From Candidatus Curtissbacteria bacterium RIFOXYA1_FULL_41_14 (GTDB lineage: Bacteria; Patescibacteriota; Microgenomatia; Curtissbacterales; GWA2-41-24), in NCBI GenBank assembly GCA_001775095.1, contig MFCA01000002.1:1-55702 (forward strand): DNA of 55,702 bases. The letters are read 5' to 3'. The number at the start of each line of letters is the position of its first letter. Positions within the stretch are counted from its first letter, which is position 1. A program made the translations under genes and the position numbers. The notes under the pieces were generated by a model. That model saw only the letters and a list, made by a program, of their open reading frames with translations. It ran no database searches and was not told the origin of the DNA. This document shows, in pieces, positions 451-45,558 of the stretch.

Positions 451-1260
451 ATGCCCACCATTCGAAAAATCCTCATTGTACTTGCAGTTATTCTAATTTT
501 TCAATTTTCAATTTTCAATTTTCAATTTTCAATTGCTATCACTCCGCTTGACCAGGCACAAGAGGACTATACTTTTCAGTTCACTAAATACCGTGAAGAG
601 CAAAGTAAATATATCACCGCCCGTTCAAGCTATTTGACTTTTAATACTGCCGTTTCTAAAAGTGAAGCTTTCCTGGCAACAAAAGATTACCTTGGCCAAA
701 TTGATAATCTTTATACCTCCTATATTCTTCTGGTTAACGAACACGCCAACAGTCTAAACTGGACAAACAGCACCCTTCCTAAAGATCTTGTTAGTAAAAT
801 CGCGGGCGAGCAAACCTCCTATCTTAAAGATCATCAAGAAAAAGTCTCTCAATCAACAACTCTTGAAGAACTGCCAGTATTGGCTGCGGAATTGAAAAAA
901 TATGTCGATACCAATCTCGCTGAAAAAATCAATAAAACTTTGGCAATTCTCGAAATCGTTGAAACCGAGTCGGCACTTTCTGATTTTAACGAGCTAACCG
1001 CCATTCTAGACCAGGCAATGACTTCTAAAAATCAACCAGGCGCAAGTCAATCATTTTACGCCAACTGGACCTCCGAAATATCCGATATTCGGACTAAAGC
1101 GGAAGCTTTTAAAGATCAGGCCAAAGCTCAACTTGCCAAAACCGAGGAGGAGACCGCTTCAGAAAGGGAATTATCCTCCATTTCCTATTCCGCACAACAG
1201 GCTAAAAAAGAACTTCAGAGGTCAAAACCATTGTTTGAGGAGGTTATTAAGAGTCTATGA
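451..1260 (+). CDS. Secreted or membrane-anchored coiled-coil protein, function unknown
   Basis: N-terminal hydrophobic segment ILIVLAVILIFQFSIFNFQFSIA, then an Ala/Glu/Lys-rich sequence. Part of the signal region is encoded by a heptamer array. Confidence 0.55.
   Translation: MPTIRKILIVLAVILIFQFSIFNFQFSIAITPLDQAQEDYTFQFTKYREEQSKYITARSSYLTFNTAVSKSEAFLATKDYLGQIDNLYTSYILLVNEHANSLNWTNSTLPKDLVSKIAGEQTSYLKDHQEKVSQSTTLEELPVLAAELKKYVDTNLAEKINKTLAILEIVETESALSDFNELTAILDQAMTSKNQPGASQSFYANWTSEISDIRTKAEAFKDQAKAQLAKTEEETASERELSSISYSAQQAKKELQRSKPLFEEVIKSL
495..534. repeat. Heptanucleotide tandem array (aattttc, about 5.5 units) inside a CDS
   Basis: Read directly: aatttttc aattttc x4 aattg. Translated as FQFSIFNFQFS. 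Confidence 0.9.
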
Positions 1261-1664
1261 ATCAAGATGATATAAACCCCATGGAAGAAGAGATAGCTTC
1301 CGAAGAGGTTACAAACGAAGAAAACCAAAAACGTCCAGAGCCTAAATCTAAAGCTGGGATACCTAAGATGAGGCTTCATTTCACCCTCACCAAACCAAAA
1401 ATTATTACACTGGTCATACTTTTTATGATAATACTTGCAACTTATTTCGCTTTACTTTTACTTTCAGCGAATAAACCGGAAGAAAATCTTTCTTCCATAC
1501 CAACAAATACAACTACCTATAGCCCTAAACCTTTAGTTGATCCCGAAACGGCCGCTCTTATTAATAAAGTAGAAACCTATAATAAGAAATTGGATACTCT
1601 GAATAATTACCCGAAAAAATTGGCCCCGCCCTCCGTCCAACTTGATATTAGCTTTGAAAAGTAA
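1257..1664 (+). CDS. Single-pass membrane protein, function unknown
   Basis: ATGA overlap with the upstream ORF. One TM segment (IITLVILFMIILATYFALLLL). Confidence 0.5.
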   Translation: MNQDDINPMEEEIASEEVTNEENQKRPEPKSKAGIPKMRLHFTLTKPKIITLVILFMIILATYFALLLLSANKPEENLSSIPTNTTTYSPKPLVDPETAALINKVETYNKKLDTLNNYPKKLAPPSVQLDISFEK

Positions 1665-1677
1665 TAAAATACGCGTG

Positions 1678-2277
1678 ATGAAACCATCACAAATAGTAAA
1701 AAATGTTGCGCAATCAGCTTTTGAGCCGTGGGAAACACTTAATTCGCAAATAACAAGGCCTATAATAGAGGAGACCGCTCGTGAGCTGGGATTTGGCGGA
1801 TCAAAGACATCAGGAGCAAAAAGAACAATTGCACAGGAAGAACTTCAACGAGCTAGAGAGAAGCGAAAGCTTGAAGAAGAAGATAGTCAAGATAAAGGGC
1901 AATCTTCTGAAAAAGCCAGCGCCTTAATTTCCCAAATTCAAAGTGAATATCAAATCTTTGAAGCAAGAACTAATAACCAGCAGGGCCCCAAAAAAGAATT
2001 TGTCGAACTTCAAGAAGAGATAGCTAAGCTTTCCAAGACAGCCGGAGTTGAAACAAAAGCTCATCTTGAGACAATTCCCAAAAAAGTAGGAGTTCTAGAT
2101 ATTAAGAGATTAACTTCAATTGTCAGATATTTAAGAATAAAGGTTGAGGAATCCAAAAGCGCAAAAGAGCTAGTTTCTCAAAGAGCCAATGCTAAACGAA
2201 CAACCGGTATGCTTGCCTGGGTTAGCGGCAAGCAAATGAAGGTCCACGAACAAGGCACACTCCAGCTTCAGGGGTAA
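1678..2277 (+). CDS. Hypothetical protein (charged, coiled-coil-like)
   Basis: ORF-track frame. The first ATG after the upstream stop (1664) is at 1678; the TTG at 1642 overlaps the previous gene. Confidence 0.45.
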   Translation: MKPSQIVKNVAQSAFEPWETLNSQITRPIIEETARELGFGGSKTSGAKRTIAQEELQRAREKRKLEEEDSQDKGQSSEKASALISQIQSEYQIFEARTNNQQGPKKEFVELQEEIAKLSKTAGVETKAHLETIPKKVGVLDIKRLTSIVRYLRIKVEESKSAKELVSQRANAKRTTGMLAWVSGKQMKVHEQGTLQLQG

Positions 2278-2311
2278 TTCTCAATTTTCAATTCTCAATT
2301 TTCAATTTCTA
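2277..2311. repeat. Heptanucleotide tandem array (attctca/attttca, 5 units)
   Basis: Read directly, immediately after the stop codon at 2275-2277. Confidence 0.9.
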
Positions 2312-2314
2312 CTG

Positions 2315-2388
2315 TGGGCTCAAGAGGACTCGAACCTCTGGCCTCCACGATGTCAACGTGACGCTCTAACCAACTGAGCTATGAGCCC
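2315..2388 (-). tRNA. tRNA-Val (anticodon GAC)
   Basis: The reverse complement folds as a 74-nt cloverleaf: GGGCTCA TA GCTC AGTTGGTTA GAGC G TCACG TTGACAT CGTGG AGGCC AGAGG TTCGAGT CCTCT TGAGCCC A. CCA is not encoded. Confidence 0.92.
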
Positions 2389-4637: not shown

Positions 4638-4700
4638 AGATCGATAGTTCGATAGAAAATAATTACTACCCAACTATCAAACTACCGAACTACCCAACTA
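4638..4700. repeat. Imperfect palindrome with heptamer-like arms (gatagtt / ctaccga)
   Basis: gatcgatagttcgatag ... ctatcaaactaccgaactacc; the arms are reverse-complementary. Confidence 0.6.
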
Positions 4701-4903: not shown

Positions 4904-4905
4904 AA

Positions 4906-5130
4906 ATCCTAAACTCTAAATTCTAAATCCTAAATAAATCCAAATGAGGTAAAATACAAAATTCAAAACAGGAGGATAACTATATTGTTCGAGCCCTTCG
5001 TCGAAACTCAGGGCGAGAACTAAAACTTCTCACTTTGTTCGAAGACTAAAAGGGTTTTAACTGACTATCTTTCTTTTGAACATTTGAATTTTGAAATTGT
5101 TTAGAGTTTAGAATTTAGAATTTAGAATTT
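4906..5130. repeat. Composite nested palindrome: heptamer-type arms flanking a GC-richer core hairpin
   Basis: Left arm atcctaaactctaaattctaaatcc...caaaattcaaaaca. Right arm ttttgaacatttgaattttgaaattgtttagagtttagaatttagaatttagaattt. Core ttgttcgagccc...gggcgagaac recurs at 37925-38010 and 52862-52963. Confidence 0.8.
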
Positions 5131-5569: not shown

Positions 5570-5608
5570 ATCCAGCTCTGCTGGATCTACTCCAAACATA
5601 CAAACTGC

Positions 5609-5617
5609 TGATATAAT
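5609..5617 (+). promoter_or_regulatory. Extended -10 box (TGaTATAAT) 7 nt upstream of the pheS ATG
   Basis: ctgcTGaTATAAT tcatttc ATG. No SD and no room for a leader. Looks like a remnant end of the TATATCAG/CTGATATA repeat family. Confidence 0.45.
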
Positions 5618-6647: not shown

Positions 6648-6650
6648 GAT

Positions 6651-6784
6651 GAAAATTCGAAATACGAAGCACGAAATTCGAAACAAATTCCAATTTTCAA
6701 AATACAAATGTTCAAGACGTTTTGAATTTAGGTCATTTGAATTTAAGTATTGTTTAGGATTTAGAATTTAGGATTTCGGATTTA
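6651..6784. repeat. Long imperfect palindrome (aaattcgaaa-type arms, centre acgtttt); same family as the carB insertions
   Basis: gaaaattcgaaatacgaagcacgaaattcgaaacaa...caagacgttttgaatttaggtcatttgaattta...ggatttagaatttaggatttcggattt. The 5' half is near-identical to 47299-47390. Confidence 0.85.
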
Positions 6785-6791
6785 AAATATT

Positions 6792-11914: not shown

Positions 11915-11963
11915 ACTGGCATGAAGAACCGTAGTTCTGTGCCAAGTGGACCTGCTGATATAA
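11901..11963. repeat. Degenerate copy of the TATATCAG...CTGATATA palindromic element (family A)
   Basis: aacagagaagccacactggca...tgccaagtggacctgctgatataa aligns with 44237-44312. Confidence 0.6.
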
Positions 11964-13370: not shown

Positions 13371-13405
13371 ACTTTACACTTTACACTTTACACTTTACAC
13401 TTTAC
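13371..13405. repeat. Heptanucleotide tandem array (actttac x5) ending 5 nt before the recG ATG
   Basis: Five perfect units read directly. Confidence 0.95.
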
Positions 13406-16047: not shown

Positions 16048-16075
16048 TTGACACCAAGTTGGTTTCTGCTATAAT
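16048..16075 (+). promoter_or_regulatory. Near-consensus promoter TTGACA-16-(TGc)TATAAT
   Basis: Read directly. No ORF follows it for about 300 nt. Confidence 0.6.
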
Positions 16076-16082
16076 CCAACCG

Positions 16083-16226
16083 TATCGAAGAGTCAGAGAA
16101 TCAAAACCGTTTGACCCTCTGACTCCTTGACCCCGTTAGAAGTTTGTTTTTAAATCTATATTTCGAAAAGTCTCTTCGGAGATCTTTAAGTCTGTATAAG
16201 TTGAAATACCATACTTCTAACGGGGT
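16083..16226 (+). ncRNA. Candidate structured small RNA of unknown class
   Basis: Downstream of the strong promoter there is a 9-bp perfect hairpin (16090-98/16117-25). It is followed by a 95-nt hairpin with a 13-bp perfect basal stem (16131-43/16213-25) and a cUUCGg-capped apical stem. No ATG-initiated ORF. Confidence 0.35.
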
Positions 16227-16245
16227 TGATACCCAACTATTTTAG

Positions 16246-16280
16246 TCAATTGCCAATTGTCAATTGTAAATTGTAAACTA
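16246..16280. repeat. Heptanucleotide tandem array (tcaattg/taaattg, 5 units)
   Basis: Read directly. Confidence 0.85.
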
Positions 16281-16283
16281 TTT

Positions 16284-16346
16284 ATATATCAGCAGATCGC
16301 CTTGGCACAATTCTTCAAATTCGTGCCAATGGCGCTCCTCTGATAT
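16284..16346. repeat. Family A palindromic element (MITE/REP-like), inverted orientation
   Basis: atatatcagcagatcgccttggcac-aattcttcaaattc-gtgccaatggcgctcctctgatat. Confidence 0.85.
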
Positions 16347-16347
16347 T

Positions 16348-16376
16348 TTTGCAAAATAATATTTATTAAGTAGAAT
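16348..16376 (+). promoter_or_regulatory. Putative rpmF promoter TTTGCA-17-TAGAAT
   Basis: Read directly. An 18-nt leader containing AAGGAAA precedes the ATG at 16395. Confidence 0.5.
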
Positions 16377-16966: not shown

Positions 16967-17030
16967 GAGAGCTTGTTTTTCTCGCAAGCTCGAAAAATAA
17001 AAAGTTAACATTAGTTAACTTACATAATTT

Positions 17031-17064
17031 TGATTTTTGACTTTTAACTTATAACTTATCTTAT
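17031..17064. repeat. Heptamer array (tgatttt tgacttt taactta taactta) abutting the ATG at 17065
   Basis: Read directly. The same unit type occurs upstream of holB and gyrA. Confidence 0.8.
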
Positions 17065-17310
17065 ATGATTGATTATTTAGAAGATATTAAAAAACTAATC
17101 TCAAAACAATTCGGTATAACTGAAGATGACATCGAGGAAGATTCTTTTCTTGAGGCAGACCTTAATATAACGGATTTAGATCTCGAGGACCTTTTGGAAA
17201 GTATTCAGGATAAATACCAGATCCAGGTCCCCACTGAAAAAGTCGCAACTTTTAAAAAAGTTTCTGACATAGTCTCATACCTTTTTGAAAACGTTGAAAA
17301 TGCAGTCTAA
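17065..17310 (+). CDS. Acyl-carrier-protein-like protein lacking the canonical phosphopantetheine serine
   Basis: Aligns along its length with E. coli AcpP, and is in the usual position upstream of rnc. The DSL motif reads TDL (ADLNITDLDLEDL). Confidence 0.6.
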   Translation: MIDYLEDIKKLISKQFGITEDDIEEDSFLEADLNITDLDLEDLLESIQDKYQIQVPTEKVATFKKVSDIVSYLFENVENAV

Positions 17311-17989
17311 TCTGGTAGACCTCCAAAAAAAAATAGGTTTCAACTTTAGAAATGAATCACTCTTAAAAAACGCATTTATTCACCGCTCGTACCTAAACGA
17401 ACATAAAAACTTTAAGGATGATTCAAATGAACGCCTGGAATTTTTGGGTGATTCGATTCTATCTCTGGTGGTTTCCGCCTACCTTTTCAATAAACTCCCA
17501 AAATATCCCGAAGGAAAACTTACTCAACTTCGGGCGGCCCTCGTCAGAACGGAAACGCTGGGAAAACTAGCAAGCCAGCTCTCCTTAGGCAACTATCTTT
17601 ATCTTTCAAAGGGTGAGGAGGAGTCTGGCGGGCGGACTAGTATTTCGATCTTAGCCAATTCTTTTGAAGCTCTAATAGGAGCAATTTACCTCGATCAGGG
17701 GCTGGAAAAGACTCAAGATTTTTTAAATAAAATGATTCTTCAAAAATGGCAAATCTTGGCTAAATCAGCGGTTTCTGACAATAAATCAAAACTCCAAGAA
17801 CTGACGCAGAGAGAATCTCATCAATCGCCAGTTTATCAATTGTTAAAAAGCTGGGGACCGGATCATGCCCGCAGATTCGAAATCGGAGTTTATTTAGGCG
17901 AAAAACTATTGGGCAAGGGACTGGGTAAAAATAAACAAGAAGCCGCCCAAAACGCCGCTAAAGATGCTCTTAGTAGACTAAAGGGCTAA
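17300..17989 (+). CDS. rnc: Ribonuclease III
   Basis: Signature NERLEFLGDS, then a C-terminal dsRBD (KSKLQE...GKGLGKNKQEAAQNAAKDAL). The ATG at 17300 overlaps the ACP-like stop. Confidence 0.93.
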   Translation: MQSNLVDLQKKIGFNFRNESLLKNAFIHRSYLNEHKNFKDDSNERLEFLGDSILSLVVSAYLFNKLPKYPEGKLTQLRAALVRTETLGKLASQLSLGNYLYLSKGEEESGGRTSISILANSFEALIGAIYLDQGLEKTQDFLNKMILQKWQILAKSAVSDNKSKLQELTQRESHQSPVYQLLKSWGPDHARRFEIGVYLGEKLLGKGLGKNKQEAAQNAAKDALSRLKG

Positions 17990-18007: not shown

Positions 18008-18102
18008 CAAATTTTCAATTCTCAATTTGAAATTTTCAATCAAATCTAAATGTTTAAATTTTTAAAAATTAATCATTGAAAATTTATTAAAAATTAAAAA
18101 TT
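18008..18102. repeat. Intergenic repeat module upstream of rpsP (paralogue of 18418-18543)
   Basis: Shares ttgaaattttcaat.aaatctaaat.ttt and an identical 32-mer aatcattgaaaatttattaaaaattaaaaatt (18071-18102 = 18512-18543). Confidence 0.85.
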
Positions 18103-18137
18103 GTAAATTATAAATTTATTTTAAGCATTAAGGAAAT

Positions 18138-18417: not shown

Positions 18418-18543
18418 AATTTTCAATTTGAAATTCCCAACCTCGTCTCGACTCGGTCGAGGACGGGTTGAAATTTTCAATAAAATCTAAATATTTTAAG
18501 TTTGAAAATTAAATCATTGAAAATTTATTAAAAATTAAAAATT
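18418..18543. repeat. Intergenic repeat module upstream of the KH-domain gene, with an inserted GC-rich hairpin
   Basis: Same module as 18008-18102, interrupted by cccaacctcgtctcgactcggtcgaggacgggttg. Confidence 0.85.
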
Positions 18544-20930: not shown

Positions 20931-20940
20931 ATATATTAGG

Positions 20941-20982
20941 GTCTAGTGTTTAGGGTTTAGAATACTAGTCTCTAGACACTAA
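20941..20982. repeat. CTAG-rich heptamer array (gtctagt gtttagg gtttaga atactag tctctag)
   Basis: Read directly, upstream of pilN on the minus strand. Confidence 0.6.
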
Positions 20983-23331: not shown

Positions 23332-23371
23332 GTCAATTGTCAATTGTCAAATGTCAAATGTTAATTGTTAT
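23332..23371. repeat. Heptanucleotide array (gtcaatt x2, gtcaaat x2, gttaatt, gttattt)
   Basis: Read directly. Confidence 0.9.
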
Positions 23372-23983
23372 TTAATATTGCCTTAGCGAAATCGTCGTCT
23401 CAAACTTGACATTTGCCAAAAAATCCGCGCGTGAAGGAGCATCAATTCCTTGATTGACCATAAAGCTTATGGAAACAATAGGAGGCGACCCGGAGGCCGT
23501 AGGAATTATTTTAAATCCTAAAGGGGGAGTACACGTAATATCTACTCCCGAAATAGTATCTCTACTTGTAATTGATTCATAGTCACCCGTATTAATATCT
23601 GTTCCGGGAGAGACATCTGCTACACCAATCCACCCATTGCTGGAAGGCGACGCAATACTATTGAAACATGCTATATAGAGTGAGTTTCCATCTGTCTTAG
23701 TTATATTAACCCCGCTTGATGAACCATTTGGTGTAATTTCAACAGCTGCGGTTGCACCTCGAATTTGTTTCTCCAGCAAATCCAGAACTGCCTGGCCGTT
23801 TTGCTTAACCTCTGCAGTCACATTAGCCTGATTTGTACCTTTTAAAACATTGGTTAAGAATAAAAGAGTAGCTCCTACGGCCGTAACCAGTATGCCCAAA
23901 ACAACCAGCAGCTCGATCAGGGTGAAACCATCCGAAAATTGAAAATTGAAAATTGAAAATTGAAAATTTTTGCGGAAGGGCAT
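23372..23983 (-). CDS. Minor pilin (prepilin-type N-terminal cleavage/methylation domain; PilW/PulJ-like)
   Basis: ...DG|FTLIELLVVLGIL class III signal. The 19-aa leader MPFRKNFQFSIFNFQFSDG is encoded by a heptamer array. Confidence 0.8.
   Translation of the reverse strand: MPFRKNFQFSIFNFQFSDGFTLIELLVVLGILVTAVGATLLFLTNVLKGTNQANVTAEVKQNGQAVLDLLEKQIRGATAAVEITPNGSSSGVNITKTDGNSLYIACFNSIASPSSNGWIGVADVSPGTDINTGDYESITSRDTISGVDITCTPPLGFKIIPTASGSPPIVSISFMVNQGIDAPSRADFLANVKFETTISLRQY
23934..23968. repeat. Heptanucleotide array (gaaaatt x5) inside the minor-pilin leader coding region
   Basis: Five perfect units between the only in-frame ATG and the G|FTLIE site. Confidence 0.95.
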
Positions 23984-24082
23984 TACTTCAATTGTCTCGA
24001 GAAGTCAGCACATTGTCAATTGCTTGCCCGCCGTAGCTTTAGCGAAGGCGGGCCTGCTCGCCGAAGTCCGGCAAAGCAACTG

Positions 24083-24589
24083 TTAATCATTGCTGGAAAG
24101 AATAGTCTGATTAATGACCGATTGGGTACCTCCAGAATCAGTCCATGAGACAGTAACTGTAACCTTTTTCTGATCGGAATTCGCTCCAATCTCGATCTTT
24201 AAAGATCGATCAAAAACAACTTGATTTAAAAGTACCGACTCGGGACAGTCAACAGAAGGATCTGATGAATTATTTGCCAGTTTCCAATTATTTGGATTAA
24301 TATCGGCAGTATTAGCAAGCACCCAGCAGTCGTTATTTGCCAAACTAGCAAAACCCTGCCTGTCGCGCAAAATTCTAACTTGCTCAATATTTTGCTGAAC
24401 CAATTTTGTAGCCTGGGAAGTATTTTTAGCGGTCCTTGATGCTCTTTGGACAACCAAAGTCGTAGTTACCAAAGCCACTGCCAAACCGACAATCACAGCC
24501 ATGGCGATAACAACCTCAATAAGCGACTGCGCTGACTTACTGACAACTGACAACGGACAACTGACAACTGACTTATGGCTTGCTTTCAT
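24083..24589 (-). CDS. Minor pilin (PilV-like)
   Basis: ...KSA|QSLIEVVIAMAVIVGLAV has Glu at +5. The ATG at 24589 overlaps the upstream gene end. Confidence 0.7.
   Translation of the reverse strand: MKASHKSVVSCPLSVVSKSAQSLIEVVIAMAVIVGLAVALVTTTLVVQRASRTAKNTSQATKLVQQNIEQVRILRDRQGFASLANNDCWVLANTADINPNNWKLANNSSDPSVDCPESVLLNQVVFDRSLKIEIGANSDQKKVTVTVSWTDSGGTQSVINQTILSSND
24533..24575. repeat. Heptanucleotide array (tgacaac-type, 6 units) in the minor-pilin leader coding region
   Basis: tgactta c tgacaac tgacaac ggacaac tgacaac tgactta, translated as HKSVVSCPLSVVSKS. Confidence 0.9.
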
Positions 24590-25346
24590 CCACTTCCCCT
24601 GAAGTCTGAATCTTAACATTATAGGTTTTAGAGGAATCAGATACTAAAATCAAACTTATCGTTAACTGACTTTGCGGAGTAAGTAAATTTTTTAGATTAT
24701 CACTAGTATCGATAAATGGGGGAGCCACATCGTTGTGGAAACTAACACCTGCTGCCACAGACCGATAGAAAATAGTCACGTCATTAACGGAAGAACTAAG
24801 TATACTAATTCCTCCTATCTTCACGTCTCTTGGTAGATTTACCGTTTTTGAGCCAACTGTGTAACTCTCTGTTCTACTAGGATCGTCCTGACAATAACCG
24901 GCCAACAAATATGATTGGGCATCTTGGCTAATTTTAATAAACCACCCGTCAAGAATTAGGTCATCTCTTTCAGGATTACTCTCACATTTACCGCCCGTGC
25001 CCTTATCACCGGATACTGCCTTGTTTTGAATTAAGCGAATGTCGCCTTTTAGCATTTGCGCGGCACTTTTGAGCCGCTGGTTACGTTCAAAAGACAGATA
25101 AGACGCGGTTATGGCTGAAACCGCAATACCAAAAACCGTAATCACAATCATAAACTCAATTAACCCAAAACCATGACGCCTACGGCGCCAGTTGATAGTT
25201 GACCCTTCGATGTACTCAGGGTCACCTCTTCGAGCCTGAGCCTCAGAGCCGAAGGCCTGAGCTTGCCGAATGGGTGATAGTTCATAGTTGACAGTTTTCT
25301 TATTTACGCAGACCGTGAACCGAGAACCATGAACCGTGAACCTCAT
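24573..25346 (-). CDS. Minor pilin (GspH/FimT-like); start uncertain
   Basis: RRRRHG|FGLIEFMIVITVFGIAVSAI...NQRLKSAAQML. The annotated 60-aa leader is made entirely of repeat sequence. Confidence 0.7.
   Translation of the reverse strand: MRFTVHGSRFTVCVNKKTVNYELSPIRQAQAFGSEAQARRGDPEYIEGSTINWRRRRHGFGLIEFMIVITVFGIAVSAITASYLSFERNQRLKSAAQMLKGDIRLIQNKAVSGDKGTGGKCESNPERDDLILDGWFIKISQDAQSYLLAGYCQDDPSRTESYTVGSKTVNLPRDVKIGGISILSSSVNDVTIFYRSVAAGVSFHNDVAPPFIDTSDNLKNLLTPQSQLTISLILVSDSSKTYNVKIQTSGEVDESKP
25191..25341. repeat. Composite element: GC-rich core (25201-25275) within gatagtt-type heptamers, plus an inverted cgtgaac array
   Basis: gttgatagtt-[gacccttcga...ctcagggtc...cctgagcctcagagccgaaggcctgagc...]-gatagttcatagttgacagtt ... 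cgtgaac cgagaac catgaac cgtgaac. Confidence 0.8.
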
Positions 25347-25350
25347 ATAC

Positions 25351-26118
25351 TCAATATAACATTAAATACCACTCAATAATCGGCTTTGCCCAGAAAAGGG
25401 CAGTTAAAAATCCCAGAGCCAGAAATGGAGCGAAGGGGATAGTCTGGCCAAAACTTTTTTTTCCACAAATTATCAAAAGGAGTGAAGCAACAGCACCAAT
25501 TAAAAATGCCAAGAATATTGCTAAAATTGCACCTTTTACACCCAAAACCATACCAATTAAGAAACCAAGTACGATATCTCCTTCGCCCATCCCCCGGCCA
25601 CGAGTCGCCAGAACTATTATTAGAAAAAAAAGACTAGCGGCAAACGCCGCTAACACATGCTCAAAAAAAAGCCCGGAAGATAAGTAAAAGTAATTATAAA
25701 AGAGTGAAATAAGAGAGGCAGCAAATACCAACGTAGTCGGAATAAGCGAGAATTTTTGATCCACAACAGCTACCACCAGAAAAGTCGATACAAGGAAAAA
25801 GTAGTAGAGAAGAGCAGCAACGGAAAGCTGGCCGCTTTGAACCAATACAAGGAAAGAAGAAACAAAAAGCAAAGCAATTATCGTCTCAACCAGCGGATAT
25901 TGCCAAGAGAGGGATTTTTTACAATAGCGGCATCTGGCGCCAAGGGTAATGAAACTTAAAATCGGCACAAGGTCAAACGTTCTCAAAGTCGCTTTGCAGT
26001 AATCGCAATAAGACCGACCCAAAATCGTCTCTCCCCGAGTTGTTCTGTCAATAACCACATTCAAAAAACTGCCAACAGCAGAACCTAAAATGAAAGTAAT
26101 AAGAAGCCAAAAAAACAT
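25351..26118 (-). CDS. pilD: Prepilin peptidase (A24 family)
   Basis: N-terminal Cys pairs CDYC...CRYC. Polytopic, with the catalytic-Asp context GMGEGD. Confidence 0.9.
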   Translation of the reverse strand: MFFWLLITFILGSAVGSFLNVVIDRTTRGETILGRSYCDYCKATLRTFDLVPILSFITLGARCRYCKKSLSWQYPLVETIIALLFVSSFLVLVQSGQLSVAALLYYFFLVSTFLVVAVVDQKFSLIPTTLVFAASLISLFYNYFYLSSGLFFEHVLAAFAASLFFLIIVLATRGRGMGEGDIVLGFLIGMVLGVKGAILAIFLAFLIGAVASLLLIICGKKSFGQTIPFAPFLALGFLTALFWAKPIIEWYLMLY

Positions 26119-26131
26119 CTACTCTCAAGAA

Positions 26132-26662
26132 TTAAGGCTGACAATTACCACTGCCAACCTCGCCTATACTAACGCTTTCCGATCGCCAGCACCAAACCCA
26201 ATTCCCGCTGCCGGAAGTCGGGTCTTCAATTTCGCCATAAACTGCTGCTTCTGATGAAATACCCGAACCTGAAACCAAATACTGATACTCTGTTCCTATA
26301 GGATCAAGAGGTATTATTTTTAAATCTCCTGAAGCCCTTAGCGCTGTTAAACCGCTAACAGAAGCTGGGCCGGCCGGTGAGGGATAAGCGTCATAAGTTG
26401 TGTAATATGCCTTCAGGGCATTGGCAATTTGACCGATATCGTTTTTCCTGGCGGCATCCCGAGCTTGAGATTTACGTTTAACAGGGTTGATGGCAACCAT
26501 AATTGTTGCGGCCAGAACAGCCATAATAGCAATCACAATCAGAAGCTCGATCAGGGTAAAACCATGCCGCCATGAACGGCGGTTAACAGTTGTCGGTTCA
26601 TGGTTCACAGTCTTTTGAATTCTGTGAACTATTAACTGTAAACCGTTAACTAACTTGGGCAT
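26132..26662 (-). CDS. Type IV pilin paralogue 1 (start uncertain)
   Basis: RHG|[19 protein letters not shown]-terminus has the [16 protein letters not shown]...GSGNCQP disulfide loop shared by all three pilins. Confidence 0.85.
26582..26650. repeat. Hairpin with gttcac/gttaac heptamer-type arms in the pilin 5' region
   Basis: gttcacag-tcttttgaattc-ctgtgaac is an 8-bp perfect stem, flanked by gttaac-type repeats. Confidence 0.7.
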
Positions 26663-26702
26663 TACTTTTAGACTACCCTAAAAATTAAACTCTGTAAAGT
26701 GA

Positions 26703-27239
26703 TTATGGAGTACAACTACCTGAAGTAATCTCTTGGACTTTGCCAATTGCCGATTGCCAACACCAAAGCCAATCACCATCACCCGAAGTCGGGTCTTCAA
26801 GCGTAGCATACAGCGCCGCTTCACTATTTGCGGGAGCGCCGCCAAGAGTCAAACAATAATCATCACCGGTAGGTCCGGTTGGTACTTCTTTTAAATCACC
26901 ACTTGTAGTTAGAGCAGTTAAGCCTCCGCTGGTCCCGCAGCCGTCCGGCGTAGGATAATAACCATTTCCGCGGCTGACATAATAAGCATCCAGAGCGTGG
27001 GCTAGGGTTCCGATATTAGTTTTTCGAGAAGAATCCCGTGCTTGCCTTTGTCTTTTGGCGGGATTAACCGCCACTAGAACTGCTGCGGCCAGAATACCTA
27101 GAATACCAATAACTACCAGAAGTTCGATCAGTGTAAAACCATGCCGCCAACGGCGGCAGTTCACGGTTTTGAGTTCACTGTTCACGGACTTTTGTTTTCT
27201 GTAAGCTATGAACTGTGAACTATGAACTAGATTGGGCAT
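26703..27239 (-). CDS. Type IV pilin paralogue 2 (start uncertain: ATG 27239 or GTG 27164)
   Basis: RHG|FTLIELLVVIGILGILAA. C-terminus EDPTSGDGDWLWCWQS...TSGSCTP. Confidence 0.85.
   Translation of the reverse strand: MPNLVHSSQFIAYRKQKSVNSELKTVNCRRWRHGFTLIELLVVIGILGILAAAVLVAVNPAKRQRQARDSSRKTNIGTLAHALDAYYVSRGNGYYPTPDGCGTSGGLTALTTSGDLKEVPTGPTGDDYCLTLGGAPANSEAALYATLEDPTSGDGDWLWCWQSAIGKVQEITSGSCTP
27159..27230. repeat. Hairpin whose arms are inverted heptamer arrays (agttcay / rtgaacn) in the pilin 5' region
   Basis: Minus strand reads agttcat agttcac agttcat agcttac agaaaac aaaagtc cgtgaac agtgaac tcaaaac cgtgaac. Confidence 0.8.
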
Positions 27240-27243: not shown

Positions 27244-27303
27244 TCAATTGTCAATTGTCAATTGTCAATTGTCAATTGTCAGTAGTCAGCAGTCAGTAGT
27301 AGT
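27244..27303. repeat. Longest heptanucleotide array: tcaattg x5 then tcagtag/tcagcag x3
   Basis: Read directly, in the divergent gap between the pilin and the 27316 gene. Confidence 0.95.
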
Positions 27304-27315
27304 ATATTAATTATC

Positions 27316-33424: not shown

Positions 33425-33616
33425 CAAAATTTTCTCACCTCCTCTTGAGGATTAATTTTCTAATTTTCCCTCTTATATTTAAGTATTGAGGATTCTCTTG
33501 GCTGTTGTCAAGGGTTCAGAAGTCAAAGTCGAAAGTCAAAGTGAAAAGTATCATAGATAGAAGTAAGTCGTATTGGTCCTATTGGACTTATACGACCTAT
33601 ACGCCATCCTTCTCAT

Positions 33617-34831: not shown

Positions 34832-34839
34832 ATTTTCAG

Positions 34840-34867
34840 TGTCTAGTTGCTAGTGGCTAGTGACTAG
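34840..34867. repeat. Heptamer array tgNctag x4 immediately upstream of pilC, overlapping the pilT stop
   Basis: tgtctag ttgctag tggctag tgactag. Confidence 0.85.
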
Positions 34868-35930
34868 AACCCTCGCTATTGTTTCCCACCAGCCTATCTA
34901 ATTCGTCCTGTCTAATGCTATAACTTTTAGCGACATCAAGAGCAACCCTGCCGGCACTAACCAGATATGCCAAAGATGCATCAAGAAGAACCATTCCTGC
35001 TTCACCCGATGTCTGAATAATATTGTCGATCATATGGCTTTTTGCTTCTCTGATTGCTGTCTGCACAGCGCCGGAAGTCATAAGGATTTCAACAGCGGGT
35101 AATCTTCCTCCGCCAATTGCCGGTACAAGTCTCATCGAGACTACTGCAGCAATGGTTTCAGCAAGCTGCAGGCGGACTTGGGCCTGCTGATTTTGCGGAA
35201 AGACATCAATAATCCTATCAATAGACTGCGCAGCTGAATTTGTGTGAAGGGTTGCGAAGACTAAATGTCCTGTTTCGGCAATGGTGATAGCAGACGCTAT
35301 CGTTTCATAATCACGCATTTCTCCAACTAAAACCACATCCGGATCTTCACGCAGAGCCGATCTTAAAGCAACCTCCCAAGAGTGAGTATCGAGGTGCATT
35401 TCTCTTTGAGAGATCAAGGATTTACCTTTGGGGTAAACATATTCTATAGGATCCTCAATGGTCACAACGTGAAGAGCTCGAGTCTGATGAATTTCATTGA
35501 TAATTGAGGCAATGGTGGTCGATTTACCATGTCCGGTAGGTCCAGTTATCAGAATGAACCCCTGGCGAAGTTTTACGAAATTGTGACAAATCCTAGGAAG
35601 ATTCAGTTCCTCAATTGATTTAATATAAGAGGGGATAAGCCGCAGTGCCGCAGAAAGATAACCCTTTTGAAAATAAGCATTTACCCTAAATCTGGCAACC
35701 TCTCCAAGTGCAAATGAAAAATCCAACTCTTTATTAACAAGTAACATCTCCTTTTGCTCGGGAGATAAAAGCTCAAATACTAAGCTTTCGGTATCTTCTG
35801 GCGTCAAGAGTGCGCCTGAAACAGGCAAAAGCTGCCCGTCAATACGAATCATCGCTGGTGCCCCGGTTATCAGATGAAGATCTGAGGCTTCCTTTTTAAC
35901 AACTATTTCTAAGTATTCCTGTATAGACAT
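34857..35930 (-). CDS. pilT: Twitching-motility (retraction) ATPase PilT
   Basis: GPTGHGKST Walker A, VGEMRD, TGHLVFATLHT, and the IREAKSHMIDNIIQTS PilT signature region. Confidence 0.92.
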   Translation of the reverse strand: MSIQEYLEIVVKKEASDLHLITGAPAMIRIDGQLLPVSGALLTPEDTESLVFELLSPEQKEMLLVNKELDFSFALGEVARFRVNAYFQKGYLSAALRLIPSYIKSIEELNLPRICHNFVKLRQGFILITGPTGHGKSTTIASIINEIHQTRALHVVTIEDPIEYVYPKGKSLISQREMHLDTHSWEVALRSALREDPDVVLVGEMRDYETIASAITIAETGHLVFATLHTNSAAQSIDRIIDVFPQNQQAQVRLQLAETIAAVVSMRLVPAIGGGRLPAVEILMTSGAVQTAIREAKSHMIDNIIQTSGEAGMVLLDASLAYLVSAGRVALDVAKSYSIRQDELDRLVGNNSEGSSH

Positions 35931-37838: not shown

Positions 37839-37890
37839 CCGAAGGGCAAATTGAAAATAGGCAAAAGGGGAAGTAGAATGGATGGGTAAA

Positions 37891-38047
37891 TTCAAAATTC
37901 AAAAGGCAAAAGTCAAAATTATGGTAAGTTCTCGATCCTTCGATGAACTCAGAACTCGAACAATAACATATTCTTCGAGTGAGTCAGCGAAGTGACGAAT
38001 CGAGAAGTTTCCTTACTTTTGACTTCTAACTTATAACTTTTAACTTA
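37891..38047. repeat. Composite nested palindrome: inverted heptamer arms (ttcaaaa.../...ttataac ttttaac) around a GC-richer core
   Basis: The core gttctcgatccttcgatgaactcagaactcgaacaata...ttcttcgagtgag is homologous to 4985-5046 and 52862-52963. The right arm abuts the holB ATG. Confidence 0.8.
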
Positions 38048-38055
38048 TTTAAACT

Positions 38056-38836: not shown

Positions 38837-40845
<2,009 letters not shown>

Positions 40846-41382: not shown

Positions 41383-41453
41383 AAATGATCTTTTCGTCCA
41401 AAGTTATCGAAGAACTAAAATAAAAGCTAATGCAATTAGCTTCCATAACTTGT

Positions 41454-41488
41454 GACTTTTAACTTATAACTTATAACTTTTAACTTAA
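41454..41488. repeat. Heptamer array (gactttt aacttat aacttat aactttt aacttaa) ending 5 nt before the gyrA ATG
   Basis: Read directly. Confidence 0.9.
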
Positions 41489-41493
41489 ATAAA

Positions 41494-44145: not shown

Positions 44146-44191
44146 TGTTGTCATGATGTTAAGGAAAAAACCGGCAACGATACTCCACTTA

Positions 44192-44216
44192 GAAGCCCCA
44201 GGGGCTTCTTTTTTTA
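44192..44216 (+). terminator. Intrinsic terminator after gyrA
   Basis: gaagcc-ccagg-ggcttc followed by ttttttt. Confidence 0.75.
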
Positions 44217-44237
44217 ATTTGCACAAAAGTGCAAATT
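44216..44237. promoter_or_regulatory. Perfect 9-4-9 palindrome AATTTGCAC-AAAA-GTGCAAATT (possible operator)
   Basis: Read directly, between the gyrA terminator and carA. Confidence 0.3.
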
Positions 44238-44312
44238 ATATCAGAGGAGCGCCATTGGCAGGACGAGTCGAGTCTGACTCGACGAAGTCTGCCAAGACGA
44301 CCTGCTGATATA
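44237..44312. repeat. Family A palindromic element (most complete copy)
   Basis: tatatcagaggagcgccattggcaggacgagtcgagtctgactcgacgaagtctgccaagacgacctgctgatata. The right end is TGaTATAAA, 6 nt before an ATG at 44321. Confidence 0.9.
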
Positions 44313-44343
44313 AATTAACAATGGCAAACGAAAAAAATACAAA

Positions 44344-45558
44344 ATGCAAAATAAAAAAGCAAGATTAATTCTCGAAGACGGCACCATCTTTAAAGGTAAT
44401 GCAGCCGGCAGTCAGACCTCTTCAGCAGGCGAAGTAGTTTTTGCAACAGGCATGGTCGGTTATGATTTATCGCTTACCGACCCTTCTTACGCCGGCCAGA
44501 TATTAACCTTCACATACCCTTTAATCGGTAATTGGGGTGTACCGCCAAAAGAGTTTTGGGAATCGGATAAAATCCAAGTTGCTGGTCTTGTAGTCAGCGA
44601 CTTAACTACAAAACCCAGCCATTGGCAATCGCAACAAACTCTTGATGAATGGCTGAAAGAAGAAGGAGTCTCTGCAATTTTTGGTATAGATACAAGACTC
44701 TTGACCCAAAAATTACGAGATAGGGGAGTAATGCTGGGTAAAATTGTAGTTGAGGATCAGGATATCGAATTTTATGATCCGAATGCCGAAAATCTTGTCG
44801 CCAAAGTTTCGCCGAAAGAACCAAAAATCCTCAAATCCGAAATCCGAAATCCGAAATCCGAAATCCGGGTCGGCCTATTAAATTGTGGAGCGAAAAGAAA
44901 TATCCTGCGCAGTCTTCTTGCTCGAGGAGTAACCGTTTATGATCTCCCATGGAATTTCGATCCGTTCGTTTCGGACGGGTGGCAGTCGTGGAAAGGTTCC
45001 CGACAGCGCGGACCCCGCACTTTTACAAATTCTGATCAAAATCACAAATATCAAACCAACCTAAAAGTGCGGGGGAGCACTGACGGGAAGGAAACGACTG
45101 ACAGGACCCGTCCGGAATTCCCCAAACTTGACGGCCTGGTCATTTCCAATGGTCCGGGAGACCCTAAAATGGCCAAAGAGACCATCAATATTATCAAAAA
45201 AGCTTTAAAAAAGAAGATCCCAACATTCGGAATATGTCTTGGCAACCAGCTTCTGGCTTTAGCGACCGGGGGAGATACTTACAAATTAAAATTCGGCCAT
45301 CGGGCACAAAATCAACCGACTATTCAAGCCGGAACCAAACGCTGCTACATCACCACTCAAAATCATGGCTTTGCGGTCGACGAGAAAAAAATGCCAAAAG
45401 GCTTTAAGAGATGGTTTCATAATGCTAACGATAATACTAATGAGGGAATAATCCATGAGAATCTCTCATTTTTTTCCGTCCAATTCCATCCGGAAGCCAG
45501 TCCCGGGCCAACAGATACCGAATGGCTCTTTGATTACTTTTTGGAGAAATTTAAATGA
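44344..45558 (+). CDS. carA: Carbamoyl-phosphate synthase small (glutaminase) subunit, carrying two in-frame repeat insertions
   Basis: ARLILEDGTIFKG, GAKRNILR, SNGPGDP, GICLGNQLL, VQFHPEA. Confidence 0.95.
   Translation: MQNKKARLILEDGTIFKGNAAGSQTSSAGEVVFATGMVGYDLSLTDPSYAGQILTFTYPLIGNWGVPPKEFWESDKIQVAGLVVSDLTTKPSHWQSQQTLDEWLKEEGVSAIFGIDTRLLTQKLRDRGVMLGKIVVEDQDIEFYDPNAENLVAKVSPKEPKILKSEIRNPKSEIRVGLLNCGAKRNILRSLLARGVTVYDLPWNFDPFVSDGWQSWKGSRQRGPRTFTNSDQNHKYQTNLKVRGSTDGKETTDRTRPEFPKLDGLVISNGPGDPKMAKETINIIKKALKKKIPTFGICLGNQLLALATGGDTYKLKFGHRAQNQPTIQAGTKRCYITTQNHGFAVDEKKMPKGFKRWFHNANDNTNEGIIHENLSFFSVQFHPEASPGPTDTEWLFDYFLEKFK
44833..44867. repeat. Heptanucleotide array (aaatccg x5) in frame inside carA
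   Basis: Five perfect units plus a degenerate unit at 44825-32. Translated as LKSEIRNPKSEIR. Confidence 0.95.
44971..45116. repeat. GC-rich ~146-nt imperfect palindrome in frame inside carA
   Basis: The left arm tcggacgggtggcagtcgtggaaaggttcccgacagcgcggaccccgcacttttac pairs with the right arm ctaaaagtgcgggggagcactgacgggaaggaaacgactgacaggacccgtccgga. Confidence 0.9.

Follow-up and report, generated by a model that had tools for sequence, protein, structure and literature searches.

Heptanucleotide simple-sequence repeats are already known as a kind. Described parallels include the STRR sequences of heterocystous cyanobacteria, the 7-bp repeats of the Haemophilus influenzae hmw promoters and the TAACTGA repeats of Beggiatoaceae, the last of which have been proposed to act in translation initiation (MacGregor 2015, PMC4679880). 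As cited in PMC4679880 and PMC4692102, an excess of heptamers is a genome-wide mutational pattern in many bacteria, for which a bias towards 7-nt slippage has been proposed (Mrázek 2007). Here we analysed a window of 55,702 nt (contig MFCA01000002.1) from an uncultured groundwater bacterium, Candidatus Curtissbacteria (Microgenomates, candidate phyla radiation, CPR), which carries numerous arrays of this type.

Period-7 arrays in the window and in independent assemblies

Utilizing a mismatch-tolerant score, we identified 22 period-7 arrays in the window against 0.12 expected (maximum of 1 across 100 dinucleotide shuffles), with 0-1 arrays for each of the other periods from 4 to 12. Exact arrays of at least three copies numbered seven at period 7, and none was present in the window at periods 5, 6 or 8-15. 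Tandem Repeats Finder assigned 37 of its 81 rows to period 7, approximately 21 with at least four copies, and returned matches at essentially every coordinate listed in an earlier note that had reported more than 20 arrays. That note also gave each locus its own unit, which does not strictly hold as a few unit families recur.

The arrays are genuine and specific to period 7. Mis-assembly of repeats is possible, and in L005, an older scaffold, two spacers rich in arrays contain N-gaps, but an artefact of short-read metagenome assembly, a possibility raised by the earlier note, is effectively refuted. Identical arrays were present in independent ENA, JGI and NCBI assemblies (11 loci), with copy numbers equal except in the array at 27244-27304 (8 versus 9 units, ordered differently). 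More than 10 independent assemblies from different samples, MEGAHIT among them, contain the arrays, the read length exceeds that of arrays of 35-55 nt, and other species carry related arrays at orthologous sites. Their density in Curtissbacteria relatives is 0.5-1.9 per 10 kb, and about no arrays were found in the distant CPR and other phyla compared. The arrays and associated features of the window are:

498-534 (+), AATTTTC x5.3, exact; inside orf451, codons 16-28, hydrophobic N-terminal segment IFQFSIFNFQFSI; the orf451 start at 451 is backed by TAAAAT 7 nt upstream
2276-2311 (no strand), AATT(C/T)TC x4.7; between the orf1642 stop and the tRNA-Val 3′ end, upstream of no start codon
2314-2388 (-), tRNA-Val
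4665-4700, period-8 'array' upstream of rpmI
4904-4945 (+), A-rich hairpin arm of AAATCCT/AAATTCT units; rpmI-rplT spacer, directly after the rpmI stop
5090-5130 (+), T-rich arm of TTTAGAA units; ends 8 nt before the rplT ATG; TTTAGA-N17-TAGAAT
6648-6791 (+), full copy of the palindromic element, occupying the whole pheS-pheT spacer; arms 6653-6683 and 6753-6784, the latter (3′) with its end 8 nt from the pheT ATG; promoter-like match 6760-6788
13371-13405 (+), ACTTTAC x5, exact; ends 5 nt before the recG ATG; TTTACA-N17-TACACT
16245-16277 (+), GTCAATT/GTAAATT x4.3; 117 nt upstream of rpmF; TTGCCA-18-TAAACT
17028-17059 (+), TTTTGAC/AACTTAT units; ends 5 nt before the ATG of the ACP-like gene
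17300-17989, RNase III gene
18086-18116 (+), ATTAAAA-type units; rpsP 5′ leader, 21 nt before the ATG, with a conserved TG-GATAAT promoter upstream
18527-18543 (+), ATTAAAA x2.4; ends 2 nt before the ATG of the KH-domain gene
20936-20960 (-), ACCCTAA-type x3.6 (minus-strand sense); ends 5 nt before the pilN ATG
22451-22527 (-), TTGTCA(A/G) array in two parts (22451-22469 and 22510-22527) split by a 41-nt palindromic insertion; L017 has the same junction
23330-23370 (-), TTGACAA/TTGACAT x5.6 (minus-strand sense); -35 box and spacer of the pilX promoter
23934-23968 (-), AATTTTC x5, exact (minus-strand sense); prepilin-like leader peptide, MPFRKNFQFSIFNFQFSDG followed by FTLIELLVV; TTGACA-N17-GACAAT-N7-ATG upstream of the start of this gene
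24539-24572 (-), TTGTCAG x4.9 (minus-strand sense); pseudopilin-like N-terminal leader, immediately behind the stop codon of the preceding gene
25312-25342 (-), GTTCACG x4.4 (minus-strand sense); called N-terminus of a prepilin-like gene
27206-27229 (-), TTCATAG x3.4 (minus-strand sense); long leader of pilin178, with an orthologous array in L016
27244-27304 (no strand), TCAATTG x5 and TCAGTAG/TCAGCAG x3; divergent spacer, 4 nt from pilin178 and 12 nt from a PMT2-like gene; TTGACA-17-GACAAT on the minus and TTGTCA-18-TAGTAT on the plus strand
34838-34867 (-), CTAGNCA x4.3 (minus-strand sense); fills the 25-nt pilT-pilC spacer 11 nt before the pilC ATG and overlaps the last 11 nt of pilT (34857-35930)
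37888-37920 (no strand), AAATTCA/AAAAGTC units; A-rich hairpin arm, divergent pilB/holB spacer
38022-38048 (+), ACTT(A/C/T)TA units; T-rich arm, ends 9 nt before the holB ATG
41445-41487 (+), ATAACTT/TTAACTT x6.1; spans the stretch between a terminator-like hairpin and the position 7 nt upstream of the gyrA ATG, TAACTT standing 7 nt from the ATG
44833-44867 (+), AAATCCG x5, exact; translated inside carA as KSEIRNPKSEIR, the unit being that of the A-rich arm of the palindromic element
46402-46541 (+), in-frame element copy in carB, residues 283-328; hairpin z = -5.6
47296-47460 (+), second in-frame element copy in carB, residues 585-637; degraded hairpin

Placement at gene starts and promoter-like signals

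Within the window the arrays cover 9.6 % of non-coding versus 0.4 % of coding DNA, a 23-fold enrichment. In co-directional spacers 7 of 11 arrays end ≤ 9 nt before a start codon where 1.5 would be expected (P = 5.5e-5), and no comparable bias was found at stop codons. The earlier note had named ten genes with an array abutting a start that lacks a Shine-Dalgarno (SD) sequence. Nine of these stand, with 2-12 nt between array and start, namely recG, gyrA, holB, pheT, rplT, pilC, the ACP-like gene, the KH gene and the gene at 27316; at rpsP, by contrast, the array ends 21 nt upstream with AAGGA in between. Further start-abutting arrays precede pilin178 (4 nt) and pilN (5 nt). Other arrays sit after stop codons or within the reading frames of orf451, carA, carB and the prepilin leader peptides. 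The arrays are spacer-biased, start-abutting, orientation-biased and turning over between species. Survival of the repeats is almost confined to tolerant places, namely spacers, surface loops and N-termini that are cleaved off or embedded in the membrane.

SD sequences are scarce in the lineage, with SD-like 4-mers at just 39 of 220 starts. Matches to TATAAT of at least 5/6 bases lie 6-8 nt before 34 of the 220 starts versus ~2.3 per other offset, and a -10 box at this distance is conserved across species at pheS, tyrS and rpmF. Such a peak near start codons is a signature indicating probable leaderless or nearly leaderless mRNAs. Start-abutting arrays scored 3.9 bits in sense versus 0.4 bits in antisense orientation with a sigma-70 weight matrix (23 of 29 arrays, p = 0.0017), in a test that includes non-independent orthologues and where any periodic unit with TAnnnT places one copy near the ATG automatically. 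An independent scan located promoter-like sites in the arrays at rplT, pheT, recG, pilX, pilin178 and the 27316 gene, recovering the TTTACA-N17-TACACT match already proposed for recG. The pilX promoter, TTGACA-N18-TAAACT (10/12 matches), is conserved in array-free relatives, while TTGACAA repeats make up its -35 box and spacer in the window. Counting against a promoter reading, the start-abutting arrays of the KH gene, pilN, pilC and L017 pheT are not promoter-like, and the rpsP arrays lie in the leader, downstream of a conserved promoter. Also against it are the arrays in reading frames and behind stop codons, the absence of arrays before three genes of the close relative L065 (see below), a copy number that is stable in the 11 loci except at one array, and predicted arm-to-arm pairing, by which the rplT and pheT arms would become buried in any transcript shared with the preceding gene.

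Unit turnover and a dispersed palindromic element

Comparison of orthologous intergenic regions, which the earlier note had suggested, showed that the array is kept at the same site while its unit changes between relatives. At rpmF, KH, pheT and recG the unit or the copy number is altered, and in more than 10 relatives the rpmF start is directly preceded by an array, with a different unit in each. The recG site of the close relative L065 has ACTTTAA/ACTTTTA x3 and the KH site of L015 AATACTA x5. At rplT, L065 retains the unit and spacing of the window, so that TTTAGAA stands 8 nt from the ATG in both species, whose PheS proteins are 84 % identical. Arrays are missing in L065 ahead of pheT, rpsP and the ACP-like gene (spacers of 16 nt for pheS-pheT and 27 nt for rpsP), and are therefore dispensable for expression of these genes. 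Turnover of units at orthologous sites indicates local amplification, for which slipped-strand mispairing is the process we infer.

A subset of arrays (AAATCCG/AGAATTT-type) are arms of one dispersed palindromic element of ~135 nt, with 7-nt phased arms, (AAATYCN)n and (NGRATTT)n, and a conserved core with ACGTTTTGARCATTTGAATTT. The element was found also in a Planctomycetota-like contig, i.e. in unrelated bacteria. The carB insertion at residues 283-328 is absent from human CPS1, the match to E. coli CarB also splits into three stretches, and L068 and L118 use the same insertion site. Two sources account for the arrays, a 7-nt unit amplified locally and the arms of this element, which partly resolves what had been left as unexplained. 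The arms of the rpmI-rplT hairpin are 83 % complementary (-65.6 kcal/mol, z = -5.8), and the hairpin is conserved in L065 (z = -3.75); that of the pilB/holB spacer has z = -4.2. Of the four element copies in the window, two show no folding advantage over shuffled sequence (z = -1.6 and -1.5). Across 30 copies 77.7 % of arm positions pair versus 20-59 % with the partner slid, and the two arms covary at the seventh base of the unit (GC/UA/CG, with 10-13 double changes in each pair), although the covariation score exceeds that of column shuffles only modestly (0.137 versus 0.111). No partner arm was found for the solo arrays at recG, gyrA, the ACP-like gene and KH.

Possible roles and relation to known repeats

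Our preferred explanation, held tentatively, is that the arrays are slippage-born repeats retained as promoter scaffolds, forming or preserving a promoter. A local 7-nt unit would be amplified at individual sites by slipped-strand mispairing or unequal exchange, and the unit would consequently differ between sites, and between species at one site. As an SD is missing from most genes and many have a -10 box 6-8 nt before the start, the 35-45 nt preceding the ATG would constitute the core promoter in this lineage, an interval that start-abutting arrays fill exactly, in an orientation where the unit reads TT(T/G)Ann and TAnnnT. From start to start the two promoter hexamers are 23 nt apart, which equals 3×7+2, so that a single unit yields a -35-like and a -10-like hexamer with 17±1 nt between them, whatever the copy number. 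Transcription may accordingly initiate from arrays. Of the roles offered by the earlier note, the promoter or spacing module has gained computational support from the -10 peak, the sense-biased sigma-70 scores, the independent scan and the pilX promoter; the translation-initiation region has gained none beyond AT-richness, and the case for a slippage switch is weak, only one array differing among the 11 loci.

A strong if somewhat unlikely rival considers the arrays neutral by-products of a lineage bias to 7-nt replication slippage together with a selfish palindromic element, seen where tolerated, the promoter-like look being that of AT-rich sequence beside genes. This accommodates the spread of arrays over all contexts that tolerate them, from spacers, leaders and cleaved prepilin leader peptides to a membrane segment, carA/carB loops and 3′ regions, as well as the three array-free L065 sites, the fast turnover of units and the heptamer excess known from many bacteria. 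It sits less well with spacer arrays that abut start and not stop codons, with orientation-biased promoter-likeness, with an rpmF array kept across more than 10 species and with the conserved unit and distance at rplT. For the inverted pairs only (rpmI-rplT, pheS-pheT, pilB/holB and carB) it is possible, but unlikely, that a long RNA or ssDNA hairpin is the functional unit, serving as terminator, RNase III processing site, mRNA stabiliser or substrate for element mobility, with the 7-nt periodicity belonging to the element and not to gene expression. Correia elements of Neisseria act in this manner, an RNase III gene is present, and the strong predicted folds, their retention in L065 and the arm pairing with seventh-base covariation are as expected. 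The two weakly folding copies and the partnerless solo arrays argue against it, and copying of one arm from the other could explain the modest covariation.

It is improbable that the arrays stand in for the SD as weakly structured A/U-rich leaders or as tandem sites for ribosomal protein S1 or a cold-shock protein, either of which covers about 6-7 nt. The short distances to SD-less starts, the low SD use, the arrays preceding internal cistrons of likely operons (rplT, pheT and pil genes) and the like proposal for Beggiatoaceae all favour such a role, as does weak predicted structure around array-preceded starts (-4.8 versus -7.0 kcal/mol). That weakness is, however, explained by base composition alone (leader-folding z ~0, with p = 0.09 for the difference from other genes), and AT-richness aside nothing supports the claim. 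CAATTG-type units are self-complementary (pilin178, z = -2.9), the predicted folds pair the rplT and pheT arms with their upstream arm, transcripts starting at -10 boxes 6-10 nt before the ATG would exclude the arrays, and unit diversity is too great for one sequence-specific binder. Very improbable are slippage-prone contingency switches, in which gain or loss of units would alter the expression of the neighbouring gene, as at the hmw promoters of Haemophilus influenzae. The variable array between the pilin and the glycosyltransferase-like gene, a 14-nt difference upstream of the KH gene in L005 and the many arrays flanking type IV pilus genes could fit switching, but the remaining arrays are equal in copy number across the 11 loci from different samples, most array-preceded genes are housekeeping genes (recG, gyrA, holB, pheT and rplT) and a 7-nt periodic promoter would if anything be buffered against copy-number change.

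The parallels previously drawn with STRR and the hmw promoters hold as analogies and not as memberships. The Beggiatoaceae TAACTGA repeats are of the same kind as the arrays described here, and the Curtissbacteria arrays are a new variant of these known heptanucleotide repeats.

Heptanucleotide arrays and their placement

The tandem heptanucleotide arrays are a real and striking feature of the window. Tandem Repeats Finder, applied to the whole window, returned period 7 in 37 of 81 rows, and about 21 distinct period-7 arrays carried at least 4 copies with mismatches allowed, sitting where the earlier note had placed them. Counting exact arrays of at least 3 copies across periods 5-15, we identified 7 with period 7 (3-5.4 copies) and 0 with every other period. 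A mismatch-tolerant score gave 22 period-7 arrays, where 100 dinucleotide-preserving shuffles gave 0.12 (maximum 1); each of the other periods within 4-12 had 0-1. The repeat upstream of rpmI (ACTACCNA x4.5, 4665-4700) has a period of 8, not 7, and is identical in L066, one of the loci drawn from other assemblies or relatives.

An assembly artefact, raised as a possibility in the earlier note, can be excluded since the arrays and their copy numbers recur in assemblies of different samples: contigs from ENA, JGI and NCBI are equally close to the window and agree in both. A stretch of NCBI GCA_036738575.1 is identical to the window apart from single substitutions and two array differences, one upstream of the KH gene and one at 27244-27304, the divergent spacer between pilin178 and the PMT2-like 27316 gene. 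Across 11 loci from independent assemblies of near-identical strains only the 27244-27304 array differed (8 vs 9 units, order changed); one older scaffold, L005, has a 14-nt difference upstream of the KH gene. The sequences preceding rpsP (18027-18117) and the KH gene (18468-18543) have in common a 77-91 nt repeat of about 91 % identity, and the L005 KH copy is rpsP-type sequence plus 14 nt, which suggests that the two copies exchanged sequence. Strain variation clusters at 53705-53913, in the N-terminal part of an integrase gene (52992-53948, minus strand), where L011 carries 16 substitutions in 90 nt and L010 a block of small indels in contigs otherwise >99.9 % identical.

The window encodes translation and replication genes (thrS, infC, rpmI, rplT, pheST, tyrS, recG, rpmF, nusB, rnc, rpsP, trmD, holB, gyrBA and carAB) and a large type IV pilus cluster; 8.7 % of it is non-coding. 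RecG is 62-69 % identical to that of its nearest genomes, which are Candidatus Curtissbacteria (Microgenomates, candidate phyla radiation, CPR). Gene content and closest genomes rule out a cyanobacterial origin, hinted at by the parallel with STRR repeats and a GC content of about 40 %.

Arrays account for 9.6 % of non-coding bases vs 0.42 % of coding bases. Within co-directional spacers, 7 of 11 arrays end ≤ 9 nt before a start codon, with 1.5 expected at random placement (P = 5.5e-5), and 2 of 11 adjoin the upstream stop codon, which is the chance level. Nine of the ten genes previously listed as having an array abutting their start do so; the exception is rpsP, where the array lies 21 nt away with AAGGA between. 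A number of arrays are translated, including AATTTTC x5 in the N-terminal hydrophobic segment of orf451, AAATCCG x5 in carA, and, in four prepilin-like genes (23372-27239, minus strand), arrays in the part of the leader peptide that precedes the G|F cleavage motif. These four leaders are unusually long, with 19 to about 59 residues ahead of the G|F site, and three of the genes have the start context AAGTA-ATGCCC in common.

Gene starts, promoter-like arrays and their turnover

A set of 220 start codons was examined, drawn from the window and from its relatives among Curtissbacteria and Microgenomates, with orthologues located by tblastn. Shine-Dalgarno (SD)-like 4-mers were present at 39 of the 220 starts vs 18 in a control interval, while matches to TATAAT of at least 5 of 6 bases peaked 6-8 nt before the start (9, 14 and 11 cases vs about 2.3 per other offset). 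At pheS, tyrS and rpmF the -10 box is kept across species 6-8 nt before the start. We infer that this peak is a signature of leaderless or near-leaderless mRNAs, in which case the 35-45 nt before many start codons would be core promoter.

Strong SDs (GAGGAGGTGA, AAGGAGGTGA and AGGGGGTGA; 33425-33445, 51640-51661 and 52655-52675) precede a few genes, namely a 152-aa pilin and two small ORFs, and the anti-SD is therefore probably intact though most genes do without it. The motif CTSCTGATAT occurs six times vs 0.13 expected (5605-5614, 11952-11961, 16286-16295, 38838-38847, 44302-44311 and 50818-50827), often paired with CTCCTCTGATAT some 50 nt from it (16283-16348, upstream of gyrB and pilM), and at pheS it provides the -10 box TGATATAAT, 7 nt before ATG. 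Between the 164-aa gene and rpmF (16048-16230) lies a perfect consensus promoter, TTGACA-16-TGcTATAAT (12/12), kept in the close relative L065 and followed by about 150 nt of nested inverted repeats with no Rfam match; this region may encode a small RNA missed by annotation or form the leader of rpmF.

Arrays that abut a start have lengths of 25-53 nt and stop 2-12 nt short of ATG, and would therefore fill the core-promoter interval. A TT(T/G)Annn unit gives a -35-like hexamer and a TAnnnT hexamer that lie two bases out of phase with a 17-nt spacer, because the start-to-start distance of the two promoter hexamers, 23 nt, equals 3 × 7 + 2. Three arrays read as follows:

rplT: TTTAGA-N17-TAGAAT
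recG: TTTACA-N17-TACACT
pilin178: TTGACA-N17-GACAAT-N7-ATG

The recG reading, already proposed from the actttac array, holds in the sequence and is also matched by an independent consensus scan. That scan placed promoter-like sites on the correct strand in the arrays of rplT, pheT, recG, pilX, pilin178 and the 27316 gene, with predicted sigma-70-type -35- and -10-like hexamers 16-18 nt apart, in sense orientation and near the gene. The pilin178-type arrangement also precedes the p203 gene, there without repeats. Over 29 start-abutting arrays from the window and relatives, which include orthologous and hence non-independent cases, the best promoter score was 3.9 bits in sense vs 0.4 bits for the reverse-complemented array, with sense the higher in 23 of 29 (Wilcoxon p = 0.0017). 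The case is clearest at pilX, whose TTGACA-N18-TAAACT is kept in L015, L016, L017 and L025; the -35 box and spacer consist of TTGACAA/TTGACAT repeats in the window and L017 and of unique sequence in L015, L016 and L025.

Array density is 3.1 per 10 kb in the window vs 0.5-1.9 in other Curtissbacteria; among loci sampled around recG, other Microgenomates have arrays only here and there, and lineages further away have essentially none. Position can persist while the unit changes: more than 10 species have an array abutting the rpmF start, with a different unit in each, the KH gene array is built of ATTAAAA in the window vs AATACTA in L015, and that of pheT of TTTAGGA vs ATTGAAA in L017. L065, whose PheS is 84 % identical, keeps the rplT array (TTTAGAA, 8 nt from ATG) and has ACTTTAA/ACTTTTA x3 at recG vs ACTTTAC x5 in the window. 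Upstream of pheT (16-nt spacer), rpsP (27 nt) and the ACP-like gene it lacks an array; the arrays are therefore gained and lost and are not indispensable.

A palindromic element with heptamer arms

The pheS-pheT spacer, two insertions in carB and the rpmI-rplT spacer of L065 contain members of one family of about 135 nt (70 % mean column identity). The window's own rpmI-rplT spacer has outer arms that belong to this family by eye and stand outside that four-sequence alignment. Copies in the window, on forward-strand coordinates, are:

6648-6791, element copy in the pheS-pheT spacer
46402-46541, element copy within carB
47296-47460, element copy within carB
4904-4945 with 5070-5130, element arms in the rpmI-rplT spacer

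In the element a conserved centre separates an A-rich arm, built of AAATYCN units, from a T-rich one built of NGRATTT units. Arrays of AGAATTT and AAATCCG thus belong to a dispersed element as its arms, and the suggestion that each locus has its own unit does not extend to them. For holB, too, the array is a hairpin's 3′ arm; those of recG, gyrA, the ACP-like gene and the KH gene have no partner arm. Folding predicts strong hairpins for three copies, at rpmI-rplT (z = -5.8), at carB copy 1 (z = -5.6) and in L065 (z = -3.75), and weak ones for the pheS-pheT copy and carB copy 2. Both carB copies keep the reading frame (residues 283-328 and 585-637) and have no counterpart in human CPS1; the match to E. 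coli CarB, which is weaker, likewise breaks into three stretches (alignment not displayed). The first insertion site is filled in two other species (L068 and L118). Within carA there is a second in-frame insertion (44962-45124) of about 54 GC-rich codons absent from CPS1, with a very stable predicted hairpin (-75 kcal/mol) and a sequence unrelated to the heptamer element.

The exact 21-nt core ACGTTTTGARCATTTGAATTT was found in 70 metagenome contigs (L067-L136) with GC contents of 33-69 %, including one, L132, that is Planctomycetota-like as judged by a neighbouring ABC transporter, and another, L087, in which the element lies inside a 16S rRNA gene. Over 30 aligned copies, 77.7 % of arm positions pair vs 20-59 % with the partner slid, a count biased towards the full hairpin on which it was made, since that structure was set by hand after RNAalifold, run de novo, had found no more than 15 of the arm pairs. 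The seventh base of the heptamer covaries between the arms (GC, UA, CG), with 10-13 double changes per pair in the 30 copies. Many copies adjoin short GC-rich hairpins, as viewed by eye in the flanks.

Viral contigs gave no exact match to the core and hence no evidence for a phage vector. Rfam, at the gathering threshold for the window and an E-value threshold for five element-bearing loci, had no family for the arrays or the element, its matches being limited to tRNA, rRNA, intron and spurious microRNA-hairpin ones. Because spurious ORFs cross the element, a mechanical survey of ORF context at 61 copies was too noisy to reveal whether one orientation towards genes is preferred, and a literature search with its sequence strings returned only unrelated primers.

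A 41-nt palindrome, TCCTTCGACTTCGCTCAGGATGACCCTGAGTCTATCGAAGG, is inserted within the TTGTCAA array at 22469-22509, and similar sequences occur at 4985-5060 and 37925-38010 and in L097 and L017. Relatives of the form TTCGA...CTCAG...TCGAA lie inside two large hairpins and break an element arm in L097, which suggests that small elements nest into heptamer repeats. Nostoc is said to have small dispersed repeats, and such nesting has reportedly been described there.

Competing explanations and known repeat systems

We consider it plausible, at somewhat below even chances, that the arrays are heptamer repeats which arose by slippage or came with the element and have been kept as promoter scaffolds for genes with no leader or a short one. 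A serious rival is purely mutational, with a 7-nt slippage bias and a selfish element yielding repeats that are visible wherever they are tolerated. It keeps that standing because the promoter reading has several weak points. The arrays of KH, pilN and pilC do not look like promoters, nor does the pheT array of L017; at rpsP a conserved TG-GATAAT promoter lies upstream of the arrays; a periodic unit containing TAnnnT always puts one copy near ATG; the orientation test draws on non-independent arrays; and in any read-through transcript arm-to-arm hairpins are predicted to mask the arms of rplT and pheT. A translational role, as put forward for the TAACTGA repeats of Beggiatoaceae (PMC4679880), gains nothing from folding, since the weaker folding at array-preceded starts is explained by composition (z about 0), and we accordingly dropped the unstructured leader as a positive argument. 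If the arrays were contingency switches, the variable 27244-27304 array would fit, but copy number is steady in all others across the 11 loci and the downstream genes are mostly housekeeping.

A broader form of the promoter-scaffold reading joins the two features, and we regard it as unlikely: heptamer arrays would be self-registering promoters of leaderless genes in Microgenomates, and the element an undescribed cross-phylum mobile hairpin that delivers such promoters. A single T/A-rich unit would supply both hexamers, and since 23 = 3 × 7 + 2, slippage could create, move and repair a promoter with its geometry unchanged. The element, with its covarying 7-nt phased arms and a core kept from Curtissbacteria to Planctomycetota, would bring a promoter immediately upstream of genes and also deliver a terminator or processing stem, while being tolerated in frame in proteins and in 16S rRNA genes.

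To our knowledge, almost nothing is known of how transcription and translation start in uncultured CPR bacteria. Should the arrays be promoters of leaderless genes, gene-start prediction and operon models would need adjusting for a very large share of bacterial diversity, and the build-up of 7-nt repeats, and not of 6- or 8-nt ones, in front of genes in several SD-poor lineages would have a concrete basis. As far as can be gathered through PMC4679880 and PMC4692102, the heptamer excess has been noted since 2007 with no functional explanation so far. The most unexpected by-product of the analysis is the cross-phylum palindrome. Its copies in two phyla, in carB and within a 16S rRNA gene make it a candidate for a new family of small mobile DNA, and it would account for many of the low-complexity 'hypothetical proteins' of metagenomes.

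Mrázek, Guo & Shah 2007, as reported in PMC4679880 and PMC4692102, described bacterial genomes as having heptanucleotide repeats in excess and proposed polymerase slippage as the source. The arrays resemble those long simple sequence repeats, so far as these sources relay them, in being head-to-tail heptamers (at least 3 copies), in excess over chance and over other unit lengths, mostly intergenic and with many units per genome, and differ in abutting start codons with an orientation bias consistent with promoters. The literature searched contained no report of such heptamer repeats for the CPR, and no description of heptamer arrays, this element or leaderless mRNAs in these bacteria. The nearest described case is marine Beggiatoaceae, in which 2-6 copies of TAACTGA lie a few nt upstream of starts in forward orientation, in spacers without an SD, those of ribosomal protein genes included, and occasionally within reading frames (MacGregor 2015, PMC4679880). 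Both systems place copies a few nt upstream of SD-less starts, but Beggiatoaceae use a single unit genome-wide, which suggests one binding factor and for which a translational rather than promoter role was proposed, whereas the window has at least 10 unit families. Xanthomonas GGGAATC and Nostoc GGGGAYT form intergenic arrays kept between the same genes with varying length and sequence, and some of them are paired in inverted orientation and could fold into stem-loops (Rehm et al. 2015, PMC4692102). The window's inverted pairs recall those of Xanthomonas; its A/T-rich units cannot form quadruplexes, unlike the G-rich units of Xanthomonas and Nostoc (PMC4692102).

In the window, GGGAATC and GGGGATT are never tandem, and TAACTGA occurs as three single copies, none tandem. 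Heterocystous cyanobacteria reportedly carry STRR heptamers with the units CCCCAGT, TTGGTCA and CAACAGT, none of which occurs in tandem in the window. The arrays are therefore not members of these named families. The likeness to STRRs lies in tandem 7-nt intergenic units within a genome also rich in small dispersed repeats; the host differs, the nearest genomes being Candidatus Curtissbacteria, of another phylum and with gene content typical of the CPR. The 7-bp repeats in the Haemophilus influenzae hmw1A and hmw2A promoters are said to vary in number between and within strains and to tune adhesin expression; the window likewise has heptamer arrays within predicted promoter regions, but with copy numbers stable for all but one array and mostly before housekeeping genes.

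Correia elements are Neisseria MITEs, dispersed palindromes lying beside gene starts, which may have outward-facing promoter hexamers and may fold into long hairpins, and Rickettsia palindromic elements insert in frame into conserved proteins. The heptamer-armed element resembles both in behaviour, not in sequence, and we know of no sequence relationship to either. As with Correia elements, its dispersed copies have sequence and inverted arms in common (4 in the window, 70 contigs, 77.7 % paired); as with the Rickettsia elements, it is a palindromic in-frame insertion in a conserved protein gene (carB), here in Curtissbacteria, with further copies including a Planctomycetota-like contig, and with no Rfam family. 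It differs from both in that its centre is the most conserved part, its arms are 7-nt periodic and it spans at least two phyla.
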